Of a stretch of 64,000 nucleotides of DNA, positions 10,850 to 13,366 are shown piece after piece. Every line of letters starts with the position of its first letter. The first letter of the stretch is position 1. Both the position numbers and the translations under genes were made by a program. Under the pieces are notes generated by a model that worked only from the letters and a program-made list of their open reading frames with translations, had not been told where the DNA came from and ran no database searches. The stretch is from positions 127,527 to 191,526 of the forward strand of contig DXAN01000023.1 of assembly GCA_019117045.1 (NCBI GenBank), written 5' to 3'. Source of the DNA: Candidatus Mailhella merdigallinarum. GTDB lineage: Bacteria > Desulfobacterota > Desulfovibrionia > Desulfovibrionales > Desulfovibrionaceae.

Positions 10850-12034
10850 ATGCTTAAATCAGAACAAGAATTTGTTGAAAATCAACTTCATAATTGGATA
10901 AATCAATTTAAAAAAATTGACCGTCCATCTGTCCGGAATATGATAAATGATTTGATAATGGTTAGTTATTCAACATTTGAAAACAATATTTCCAAAATTA
11001 TATTGAATATATCAAAGCAATATAATAAGATTGCTTTATTTCCAGTAGAAGAATTATCACAAGAAAACATGAAATTAACAGATAATAATAACCCAAATAA
11101 AATGTACTTAAGAAGGACGAGAGGGAGTTCCTCCCAAATAGATTACTTTCTTCAACGTCTTGGAGAGCAGCATCCAAGAAAATTAATTGCTCGTCCAAAA
11201 GATAATTCTATGATATCAGAAAAAATTGGAGCAATTATCTATGTTGATGACTTCATTGGTAGTGGTAATAGAATAATAACCTTCTGGAAAAATTTTATAA
11301 GCAAAAAAATTAAAAGCTGGCTTTCTTACAGAAAATGTGATATATATTTTGTTTCCTATGCGTATATGAATGCCGGAATTAATAATATATTAAAATCATG
11401 TAGAGGGATATCCATTAATGAGTTTATGGCATTTCATAAAAGCCCTACTTTTATGCATAAAAATGAGATTATTAGATTATGCGACAGGTATATGCCATTA
11501 GATAAAAATAGATATGGATATGGTGATACATTAACAAATATAGTATTTGAATGGAAGTGCCCGAACAATACGCCACCCATCTTGTGGATAGAAACCAAAA
11601 ATTGGAAACCACTACTGCCAGCAAGAAATATAGACAAGAATTTATTTTCTTATTTAAGTGTAAATCATGACATAAGAATTATAGAAACTTTATGGAACAA
11701 AGGGCAATATAAAATTGCCATCACTCTAGCTGAAAATATCAATGCTCTGCCAGAAGATACTATAAATTTTATATGTTTTTTAAGTTTAATAGCTAAAAGA
11801 TTATCTATTTCTAACATTCAACAAATTTTAGAAATAGATGATATTGAAATGAATAGGATTATAGCAAAAGCAGAAAATTTGCATGCTATAACATATGGTA
11901 GAATCTCAGAATATGGAAAAGAATTATTGGAATATTATAGAACGCTTTCTCGGCAAGAGAAAAACTCTTTACAATCTGAATTTGAGGATGTATTATATGT
12001 GCCTTCTCAATATGGGGGATACTCATGTATCTAG
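10850..12034 (+). CDS. phosphoribosyltransferase (PRTase)-like protein; candidate retron accessory/effector
   Basis: AIIYVDDFIGSGNRI matches the type I PRTase PRPP-binding signature (hydrophobic x4, DD, hydrophobic x2, SG). The ORF has very low GC and lies immediately upstream of the structured intergenic region and the RT. Confidence 0.5.
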   Translation: MLKSEQEFVENQLHNWINQFKKIDRPSVRNMINDLIMVSYSTFENNISKIILNISKQYNKIALFPVEELSQENMKLTDNNNPNKMYLRRTRGSSSQIDYFLQRLGEQHPRKLIARPKDNSMISEKIGAIIYVDDFIGSGNRIITFWKNFISKKIKSWLSYRKCDIYFVSYAYMNAGINNILKSCRGISINEFMAFHKSPTFMHKNEIIRLCDRYMPLDKNRYGYGDTLTNIVFEWKCPNNTPPILWIETKNWKPLLPARNIDKNLFSYLSVNHDIRIIETLWNKGQYKIAITLAENINALPEDTINFICFLSLIAKRLSISNIQQILEIDDIEMNRIIAKAENLHAITYGRISEYGKELLEYYRTLSRQEKNSLQSEFEDVLYVPSQYGGYSCI

Positions 12035-12187
12035 CGGTCGCCTGCTTTTCTTAGTGAAGAGCAGCATGGGACGGATTTCCGAACCAGCAAAGTTGTAACA
12101 TGTCTTCGACATTCATGTGCTCGCCTTATTACTCCGGAGCCTCGTGAACGGCAAGCACATGAATCTCGCTTCGCGAGTTAAAAGTAG
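12035..12187 (+). ncRNA. candidate retron non-coding RNA (msr/msd) in the 153-bp spacer upstream of the RT
   Basis: Long imperfect inverted repeat attcatgtgctcgcc ... ggcaagcacatgaat (about 15 to 19 bp stem, 24-nt loop). Additional hairpins: ctgcttttc-ttagt-gaagagcag, cggatttccg and ctcgcttcgcgag. Position and size fit a retron ncRNA. Confidence 0.45.
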
Positions 12188-13366
12188 ATGCAAAGAGTAT
12201 CCCCCAATCAAATTCATAGATGTGCTGAACTAAAGAGTTCTAACGAGGAATTTATTCAAAAATTGGTGAAGGATTCAAGAAAACTCTATAGCAAAGGATT
12301 GCCTATAATTTTTACTTTACGCCATCTTTCCAAATTAACAGATGTCAACTTCAAATATCTTCACTCTATAGTAGGAAAAAAAATTAATCCATATAATAAT
12401 TTTTCTATAAATAAAGCAAGAGGAGGTAAAAGAAATATTAGTTCACCAAATTTTTATTTAAGACGTGTGCAAGATTTTATTAAGCAAGAAATACTTGATA
12501 CCAATTATGTATCAAGTCAAATATCTGAAAGTGTGTTTTCATATAGAAAAGCACTATCAATTGTCGATAACGCTAAATTCCATATTGGCGCGAAGTGGAT
12601 AATAAAAACTGATATAGAAAATTTCTTTGATTCAATCAAAGAATATCATATATATCATTTTTTTCATTCACTTGGTTACGCATCTCTTTTATCTCTAGAA
12701 TTGTCACGTTTAGTAACATGGCCATCATTTGATATTAATTTCGATCTTGGCTTATCACAAGATAGAAGTTTAAACGAAGATATTACTTTTACCTCTAAGT
12801 ATAAATTTTATTGTTCTTCAGATGTAATAGGATCCTTACCTCAAGGTGCGCCGACAAGCCCCCAGTTATCAAATATTATTTTTTCTCCAATTGATGAAAA
12901 GTTTAAAATATTATCTGAAGAATATGGATATATTTATACACGATATGCTGATGATTTATTTTTTTCAACTCGAAATAATATAGATATAAATTCTGCACGA
13001 AATTTATTGAATGAAGTTAGGTGTATATTAAACTCTAGTAATTATAAAATGAATAATAAAAAAACAAAAATAATTTTACCTAGAGCAAAAAAAGTTATTA
13101 CAGGAATTGTTATTACGGATGATAAGATACTTTTAGATAGAAAATTTAAGGATGAAATTAAAATGAATATTTTTTTTGCCGAAAAAAATGGATTAGAAGC
13201 GCAAAGAAAATTTATAAAATTTCATGGTAATACACATACTTTTCTTAAATATTTGTTGGGTAAGCTGAATTTTGCAAATCAGGTTGAACCTGATTTCGCG
13301 AATATTTGGAAGAAACGTTTACTTAATTTGGCCAAAAATAGTGGATTCACTATGATTTATTATTAA
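12188..13366 (+). CDS. retron-type reverse transcriptase
   Basis: RT motifs LPQGAPTSPQLSNI and YADD (RYADDLFFS). The retron-specific VTG-type motif KKVITGIVIT follows downstream. 392 aa, AT-rich. Confidence 0.85.
   Translation: MQRVSPNQIHRCAELKSSNEEFIQKLVKDSRKLYSKGLPIIFTLRHLSKLTDVNFKYLHSIVGKKINPYNNFSINKARGGKRNISSPNFYLRRVQDFIKQEILDTNYVSSQISESVFSYRKALSIVDNAKFHIGAKWIIKTDIENFFDSIKEYHIYHFFHSLGYASLLSLELSRLVTWPSFDINFDLGLSQDRSLNEDITFTSKYKFYCSSDVIGSLPQGAPTSPQLSNIIFSPIDEKFKILSEEYGYIYTRYADDLFFSTRNNIDINSARNLLNEVRCILNSSNYKMNNKKTKIILPRAKKVITGIVITDDKILLDRKFKDEIKMNIFFAEKNGLEAQRKFIKFHGNTHTFLKYLLGKLNFANQVEPDFANIWKKRLLNLAKNSGFTMIYY

Follow-up and report, generated by a model that had tools for sequence, protein, structure and literature searches.

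The locus described here raises the question whether a strongly AT-rich segment in the genome of Candidatus Mailhella merdigallinarum, lying between the genes of a type I restriction-modification (R-M) system and a fic gene, encodes an anti-phage system, and whether that system is a new one. The segment belongs to a 64,000-nt stretch of contig DXAN01000023.1 (assembly GCA_019117045.1, positions 127,527 to 191,526), which was analyzed at its full length and is called the window, and all coordinates are those of the window. An earlier reading of this DNA, here the original prediction, had proposed a retron-like module made up of a gene for a phosphoribosyltransferase (PRTase)-like protein, a structured noncoding RNA (ncRNA) and a reverse transcriptase (RT) gene, and considered it a candidate for a distinct anti-phage system. 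We conclude that the module is, with high probability, a complete type III-A3 retron, i.e., a tripartite abortive-infection system directed against phages. It is a known kind of system in a divergent Bilophila/Mailhella lineage, and new are the variant C-terminal peptide of its effector, the host group and the co-inheritance with R-M genes.

The two open reading frames (ORFs), for the 394-aa effector and the 392-aa RT, are intact, lie on the same strand and were found exactly where they had been predicted, including the spacer of 153 nt between them (12035-12187). The claimed AT-richness was confirmed as well, with a GC content of 0.294 for the whole module and 0.25-0.36 in 500-nt windows across 10500-13500; the 3-kb flanks have 0.49 and 0.51 and the remaining window 0.52-0.63. 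The low-GC tract begins at about 9500, already within hsdS. The guess that the DNA comes from a member of Desulfovibrionaceae agrees with the 90%-identity cluster of the effector, which includes proteins of Bilophila wadsworthia 3_1_6 and Candidatus Mailhella merdigallinarum. In a full scan of a library of 1.84 billion representatives, 881 members of the effector family were counted at E-values up to 1e-3; only four representatives exceed 40% identity, and this indicates a small, divergent sublineage associated with Desulfovibrionaceae.

Among RT profiles, those of retron RTs fit the protein best. Its best PADLOC match was RT_III-A (PDLC02944, 1e-121), followed by RT_XIII (1e-66) and RT_II-A (6e-65), and all 25 top matches were retron RTs; in NCBIfam, retron_St85_RT was matched at 8e-59, and the closest solved structure by sequence was the Ec86 RT (PDB, 3e-35). 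A grouping with the RTs of group II introns, diversity-generating retroelements or Abi systems, which the original prediction had named as evidence against a retron, is thus not borne out. The motifs QGxxxSP, YADD and VTG, on which the retron assignment had been based, are present as QGAPTSP, RYADDLFF (Y253-D256) and KKVITGIVI, the last being an I-T-G variant of the retron VTG motif (V to I), and the retron NAxxH motif was additionally found in the form DNAKFH. A genome scan with the RT alignment yielded mostly other retron types with at most 35% identity and no close relative, and the pattern YTRYADD[LI]xF proved to be generic.

The effector had been called PRTase-like because of a loop binding phosphoribosyl pyrophosphate (PRPP), and profile searches, motifs and structure comparison concur with this. 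In Pfam, PRTase-CE was matched at 7e-32 (residues 14-257) and the winged helix-turn-helix (wHTH) family wHTH-PRTase_assc at 3e-14 (residues 308-389), and in PADLOC, PRTase_III-A was matched at 2e-77 (model PDLC02933); the PADLOC retron and Pfam searches that had been proposed as a check thus gave the expected families for both proteins, RVT_1 being the Pfam family of the RT. The PRPP-binding loop corresponds to the motif VVILTDTIGSGNQ of the effector of Retron-Eco11 (PMC12746101), and the signature Gx14PNNxP, reported as specific to retron-associated PRTases (PMC12746101), is conserved in the family, with G223, P238 and N239 invariant and N240 nearly so. Single-sequence and profile searches gave no meaningful sequence relative of the effector in PDB. 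An AlphaFold2 (AF2) model built from 11 sequences was poor (pLDDT 59), and the addition of six homologs mended it (17 sequences, pLDDT 83, pTM 0.71, residues 370-394 disordered). When this model was compared with PDB by Foldseek, 49 of the top 50 matches were type I PRTases (OPRT, XGPRT, HGPRT, UPRT, APRT), with probabilities of 0.77-1.0 but E-values of only 1.5e-3 to 3e-2, and MarR-type folds were matched too. As modeled, the effector therefore has a PRTase fold, whose absence from structure prediction had been named among the outcomes that would speak against the retron. The protein ends in LYVPSQYGGYSCI with the C-terminal peptide YVPSQYGGY, and the pattern YxPxQYxG is kept across the 11 closest homologs; among its positions, P385 alone is nearly invariant across all 17.

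The third component, the ncRNA, extends beyond the limits first assigned to it. The structure predicted for the 153-nt spacer stands, but its extent does not, because the element runs into both ORFs, overlapping the effector gene by 22 nt at its 3' end and the RT gene by 19 nt at its 5' end. Folded as a whole, it has a minimum free energy (MFE) of -81.9 kcal/mol (z = -8.14), which none of 200 shuffled sequences reached, whereas the spacer by itself with short flanks is only mildly structured (z = -2.4). Its ends are formed by a perfect 12-nt inverted repeat between the last codons of the effector gene (12013-12024) and codons 3-7 of the RT gene (12195-12206), followed by a 7-bp inner arm (12027-12033 with 12185-12191) that takes in part of the effector stop codon TAG (12032-12034) on the a1 side and the RT start codon ATG (12188-12190) on the a2 side.

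Comparative evidence for this fold came from relatives gathered by exact-protein look-ups, whose RTs are 85, 75, 50, 49, 47 and 42% identical to that of the window. In every one of them, an a1/a2 repeat of 12-19 nt occupies the corresponding position. RNAalifold, applied to a MAFFT alignment of seven sequences, predicted 44 pairs, 15 of them changed on both sides; 94.5% of the alignment cells can pair, compared with 27-46% when the partners are slid by 1-3 columns, the slid controls contain only 2-5 compensatory pairs, and the observed covariation score was not reached by any of 500 shuffles. Compensatory changes occur in helices 1 and 2, e.g., GATACTC is replaced by GAAAGTTGC in locus L011. 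The covariance model of the ncRNA, R1, reached 199 bits on the + strand as against 39.5 bits on the - strand, and since G-U pairs also favor the former, the + strand was fixed as the transcribed one. R1 also detected the ncRNAs of loci L013, L010 and L017 and of three Flavobacteriales loci.

Within the element, the first msr hairpin differs in sequence in every relative and is retained in all of them, and the motif GGAUUUCCGAACC of the second is invariant within the clade. It recurs as GGATTTCCTGAACC in the retron of a Shigella plasmid (L097), so that GGATTTCC(T)GAACC is the msr motif common to both. Only position-specific matches to this motif were used, since a loose regular expression mostly matched unrelated sequence outside the effector-RT spacer, in several cases sequence that we take to resemble tRNA T-arms. 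A 2'-5' branch would be expected at G12034, the position after the a1 stem agreeing with the description of Retron-Eco11. In the msd, the stem-loop named DSLa is followed by the stretch TTAAAAG, and the multicopy single-stranded DNA (msDNA) copied from this template, probably some 80-86 nt long, is itself predicted to fold as a single strand (z = -4.35). A candidate sigma-70-like promoter lies upstream of a1 and is retained in loci L008 and L006; it is not recognizable in more distant relatives, and such sites are no commoner in this AT-rich DNA than in shuffled sequences.

Further observations concern the same element. The DSLb loop (12126-12149, CTCCGGAGCCTCGTG) has a core CUCCG..GUCUCAC that is kept in all seven relatives, with GUCUCAC also found in the Verrucomicrobiales locus L013, and the adjoining stem covaries freely; the motif may be a recognition determinant at the tip of the msDNA. 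The repeats are under dual constraint, as the a1 arms (11996-12031 with 12013-12033) encode the conserved effector C-terminal peptide (...QYGGYSCI) and the a2 arms (12188-12206) the first seven RT codons (MQRVSPN), the SP of which is kept near the RT N-terminus in the majority consensus of RT relatives at only about 35% identity. Locus L010 (5817-6996, Logan SRR30592951) has a 331-aa RT with 52% identity and retains an ncRNA, in which the a1/a2 repeat measures 14 nt and the msd is shorter (R1 44 bits). A PRTase effector is missing, the upstream gene being of the PfkB/CTP-transferase kind, and the module has a GC content of 0.255 compared with about 0.55 in the flanks; the locus seems to derive from the same lineage by loss of the effector.

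Table 1. Features of the retron and the adjoining genes in the window.
Feature	Position	Strand	Evidence or remark
Type I R-M operon: hsdR 5583-8051, hsdM 8070-9530, hsdS 9527-10825	5583..10825	+	PADLOC REase_I 3e-249, MTase_I 2e-161, Specificity_I 2e-64
Effector gene, PRTase-like with fused C-terminal winged helix and disordered C-terminal tail	10850..12034	+	394 aa
PRPP-binding loop IIYVDDFIGSGNR (I129-R141)	11234..11272	+	D133, D134, G137, G139 invariant in 17 homologs
Retron-PRTase signature Gx14PNNxP (G223...P238-N239-N240-T241-P242)	11516..11575	+	Family conservation
Candidate sigma-70-like promoter TTTACA-17-TATTAT	11968..11996	+	10/12 positions match; ends 17 nt upstream of a1; weak evidence
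Retron ncRNA msr-msd, 194 nt, overlapping effector 3' end and RT 5' end	12013..12206	+	Folding, covariation
a1 side: outer arm 12013-12024 (TGGGGGATACTC), 2-nt loop, inner arm 12027-12033 (GTATCTA)	12013..12033	+	Inverted repeat, covariation
Predicted branching G (G of UAGC), first unpaired base past a1	12034	+	TAG invariant in 7/7 relatives
msr stem-loops: hairpin 12042-12064 (9 bp), hairpin 12067-12086 with conserved GGAUUUCCGAACC	12042..12086	+	MFE structure
msd (msDNA template), 3' boundary approximate	12098..12183	+	Helix 6/7 conservation
DSLb stem 12111-12125/12150-12164, 24-nt loop	within msd	+	Helix 6: 9/13 pairs changed on both sides
DSLa CTCGC-TTC-GCGAG, 13 nt	12165-12177	+	Helix 7 conserved
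A12183, predicted first template base (by analogy)	12183	+	Eco11 dT1
a2 side: inner arm 12185-12191 (TAGATGC), 3-nt loop, outer arm 12195-12206 (GAGTATCCCCCA)	12185..12206	+	Inverted repeat, covariation
Retron RT gene	12188..13366	+	392 aa; Pfam RVT_1 2e-22; PADLOC RT_III-A
Fic/DOC protein with C-terminal HTH, SoFic-type defense homolog, convergent with RT	13581..14507	-	Pfam Fic 3e-19; PADLOC SoFic 9e-51

Type III retrons are defined by a PRTase-like effector, and in the subtypes A3-A5 a winged helix is fused to its C-terminus (Mestre et al. 2020). The assignment to type III, made in the original prediction, is borne out by the PADLOC and Pfam matches, the nearness of the Ec86 RT and the covariation of the ncRNA, and the fused winged helix, the feature that separates A3-A5 from A1 and A2, is present in the effector. 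The best models of the window proteins, PDLC02933 and PDLC02944, are also those of the proteins of L097, whose tail YYPRQLR is of the 67_3 type, whereas Flavobacteriales effectors favor PDLC02934, and according to a 2026 preprint III-A4 is exclusive to Bacteroidota; the system was therefore filed as III-A3. Judged by the PADLOC models, the proteins may belong to effector cluster 67_3 and RT clade 9 rather than to A4 or A5; the nearest solved RT, Ec86, belongs to clade 9.

The order effector, ncRNA, RT, which had been thought to be perhaps undescribed, has been published for Retron-Eco11 (PMC12746101), and it is the rule for this type and not a novelty. Among 80 genome loci fetched by RT similarity, 19 have an effector, detected by its profile, that directly precedes the RT on the same strand, and when 80 metagenome loci were retrieved by similarity to the effector, an RT followed at most 600 nt downstream of it in 70 of them. 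The other ten comprise two with an RT elsewhere in the locus and eight without one, seven of which reach the contig end less than 1 kb past the effector.

Retron-Eco11 is the type III-A3 system with which the locus can best be compared (Garcia-Rodriguez et al., NAR 2025; PMC12746101), and we drew the comparison from its published description and from L097, the retron on the Shigella sonnei plasmid p202106367-3 (NZ_OP038295.1), as its proxy. Retron-Eco11 has a two-arm inverted repeat that contains the effector stop codon and is followed by an unpaired branching G, three short msr stem-loops, and an msDNA beginning with dT1 and bearing a 13-nt DSLa and a long DSLb; its effector combines the PRPP loop and Gx14PNNxP with a wHTH lobe, and YYPxxLRxx stands at the end of its disordered tail (PMC12746101). 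The window retron shares with it the gene order on one strand with an ncRNA overlapping both ORFs, the a1/a2 repeat around the effector stop and RT start codons with the unpaired G after a1, short msr stem-loops, a DSLa of the same 13 nt and a long DSLb, the PRTase and wHTH lobes with both signatures, a disordered tail ending in a Y-x-P peptide, and an RT related to that of Ec86. L097 agrees with the window in its best PADLOC models, gene order, PRPP loop (LMFIDDYIGSGQR), Gx14PNNTP and msr motif, and has a DSLa-like hairpin before AGTAG. Among the differences from Retron-Eco11 are its Enterobacteriaceae host as opposed to Desulfobacterota, an msDNA of 101 nt compared with the shorter one predicted here, and the fusion of the window retron into an hsdRMS cassette on a mobilizable element. 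Ec86/Eco1 (type II-A3) has the nearest solved RT and shares the general msDNA mechanism and the logic of an RT-msDNA-effector complex, but its effector is nucleoside deoxyribosyltransferase-like and not a PRTase, and its ncRNA type and trigger (Dcm) are different.

Several points weigh against the assignment to type III-A3. The mapping of PADLOC models to the subtypes A3 and A4 is our own calibration and is not documented. The identity to L097, the nearest enterobacterial III-A3-like system, is just 27% for the effector, which has 433 aa there, and 34% for the RT. Even with its filters off, R1 failed on the ncRNA of L097 as well as on the Shewanella (L014) and Pseudoalteromonas (L015) loci, so the homology to published IIIA3 ncRNAs rests on the architecture and one msr motif, and a permissive Rfam search of 10500-13700 gave only chance matches (E >2), with no group II intron RNA and no Rfam model for the ncRNA. 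The C-terminal peptide of the effector is YVPSQYGGY instead of YYPxxLRxx; with the L097 tail it has Y-x-P-x-Q in common, L-R being replaced by Y-G. The trigger may likewise differ from that of Retron-Eco11.

If the type III-A3 retron works as Retron-Eco11 and retrons in general do, the operon would be transcribed and the ncRNA would fold, after which the RT would prime from the 2'-OH of G12034 and copy the msd from A12183 backwards. The expected product is a branched msDNA with two hairpins, of 13 nt and about 54 nt, and the PRTase would be kept inactive in a complex of RT, msDNA and effector. The effector could then be turned on by a phage protein that acts on the msDNA, and would deplete PRPP, starve nucleotide synthesis and abort the infection. 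The triggers of Retron-Eco11 are phage superfamily 2 (SF2) helicases (UvsW, D10), whose ATPase activity is needed, the outcome is PRPP depletion with abortive infection, and defense requires all three parts (PMC12746101). PRPP depletion and triggering by SF2 helicases are known only for Retron-Eco11 and five related systems.

The locus thus reveals neither a new mechanism nor a new architecture, and the claim of a distinct system had to be given up in favor of the anatomy of a known type. Its value lies in extending an experimentally characterized type to Bilophila and Mailhella, anaerobic Desulfovibrionaceae from gut and fecal samples, and in a prediction of ncRNA and msDNA at base resolution (branching G, first template base, DSLa and DSLb) that is usable for msDNA detection or the design of retron editors. 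Moreover, the mobilizable element that carries it is found in many metagenome assemblies and is a documented case of a retron and a type I R-M operon inherited as a unit.

The alternative that survives best is that the retron is functionally coupled to the upstream R-M system, being co-transcribed with it and serving, rather than as an autonomous retron, as a guard or second layer set off by the inhibition of restriction, much as PrrC depends on EcoprrI. The effector gene starts 24 nt after the end of hsdS, with no terminator found between them, and L008 carries the same hsdRMS-retron cassette, its homology to the window stopping exactly at the RT stop codon. Between the two loci, hsdR-hsdM are 87.7% and the retron 82.8% identical in nucleotides, and HsdS, with its specificity domains replaced, is 41.6% identical in amino acids. 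The retron is not simply inserted between the R-M locus and the fic gene, as had been proposed, but is co-inherited with hsdRMS. Type III-A retrons directly behind hsdS, or beside or inside type I R-M loci of the EcoEI type, also occur in other phyla. In L013 (Verrucomicrobiales) the layout is hsdR-hsdS-retron-...-hsdM, and L034 (Bacteroidota) repeats it with a nuclease and a fic gene intervening; the retron of L014 (Shewanella) closely precedes hsdMSR, in L142 hsdS ends 3 nt before the effector ORF, and in L151 the retron is embedded in a type I R-M locus. Type I R-M genes were present in 3/19 PRTase-retron loci of the genome sample and in 0/61 other retron loci (one-sided Fisher p = 0.012), but HsdM and HsdS were detected with window-like queries, which biases these counts, and in the effector-seeded metagenome sample the linkage was found in only three of the 80 loci (L142, L151 and L098, the last of which is the window's own element).

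With such a difference between the two samples, obligate coupling to R-M was downgraded. The nearest relatives outside R-M loci (L009, L011, L094 and L096) have no R-M neighbor, Retron-Eco11 works autonomously when cloned (PMC12746101), and type I R-M loci are known quite generally to have unrelated defense genes embedded in them (bioRxiv 10.1101/2024.01.29.577857). The retron resembles such genes, e.g., PrrC (Payne et al. 2024 preprint), in that the module lies inside or directly after an R-M operon in several phyla, and differs from them in that only a minority of type III-A retron loci are embedded and nothing points to their depending on the R-M proteins physically or in regulation. Functional coupling at this locus is thus unlikely. 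We give as little credence to the broader notion that III-A3 retrons of this lineage, and independently those of Verrucomicrobiota, Bacteroidota and Gammaproteobacteria, form functional cassettes with EcoEI-type type I R-M systems, embedded right behind hsdS and co-transcribed with them as an abortive-infection backstop against phages that escape or inhibit restriction, and that they respond to a trigger other than UvsW or D10. Such a trigger would fit both the divergence of the C-terminal peptide and the conservation of the motif in the DSLb loop.

It is less likely still, and indeed very improbable, that RT and PRTase are merely adjacent in a retron-like remnant or non-defensive element that confers neither msDNA nor immunity, e.g., foreign AT-rich DNA that has been silenced or has decayed. 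In favor of this, the module is far richer in AT than its host, one relative (L010) has lost the effector, and public records label all members of the effector cluster just 'hypothetical protein'. On the other hand, both ORFs are full-length with all catalytic and signature residues intact, and the pairs of the ncRNA are maintained through compensatory change. Identical proteins occur on many independent contigs, and the presence of the identical RT in 81 blocks of the metagenome collection was counted as evidence for purifying selection. The low GC content is common to all Desulfovibrionaceae relatives and is typical of acquired defense cargo. The last alternative, an RT of another class (group II intron, diversity-generating retroelement, Abi or defense-associated DRT) next to an ordinary nucleotide-salvage PRTase, is effectively refuted, since the weak secondary RT matches (group II intron RT 7e-19, Drt3a 2e-11) stay far below the curated cutoffs (68 vs 300 bits for group_II_RT_mat and 44 vs 200 bits, with Drt3a, Drt2 and Drt4 at 33-44 bits vs cutoffs of 200-450), neither a group II intron RNA nor a member of another Rfam family was found, and the effector, the top fold matches of which are indeed salvage PRTases, matches Pfam PRTase-CE and not a salvage family, has Gx14PNNxP and the wHTH, lacks a sequence relative in PDB and is syntenic with retron RTs across phyla.

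The type III-A3 retron sits on the defense island of a mobilizable element. A DUF927-Toprim primase and a Mob_Pre relaxase are followed by hsdR-hsdM-hsdS, the retron, the SoFic gene on the opposite strand, two genes for proteins of 835 and 212 aa, a second type I R-M system and a PDC-S18 homolog, and housekeeping genes start at about 27.6 kb. The fic gene is outside the conserved cassette, its position being taken by HicB in L008; in L020, the effector gene is closely preceded by a fic gene. In the window, the fic gene is directly followed on the - strand by a 62-aa ORF (13363-13551), which was called as a gene in several metagenome copies (L001, L002); it has no family match and may be a small partner of Fic or spurious.

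The co-oriented ORFs for the 835- and 212-aa proteins (15682-18189 and 18204-18842, both on the - strand) lie between SoFic and the second type I R-M system and have no Pfam or PADLOC match. In the element variants L002 and L003 an integrase and an AAA_25 gene stand in their place, and the two ORFs may represent an uncharacterized defense pair. The second type I R-M system (20482-27513) consists of an hsdR of 1089 aa with a DUF4145 N-terminus, hsdM and hsdS, and is followed by the PDC-S18 homolog (PADLOC 3e-133; NucS_C/DUF5655). At about 27.5 kb the island gives way to housekeeping genes, for a Cys/Met pyridoxal phosphate (PLP) enzyme, homoserine O-succinyltransferase and HycI.

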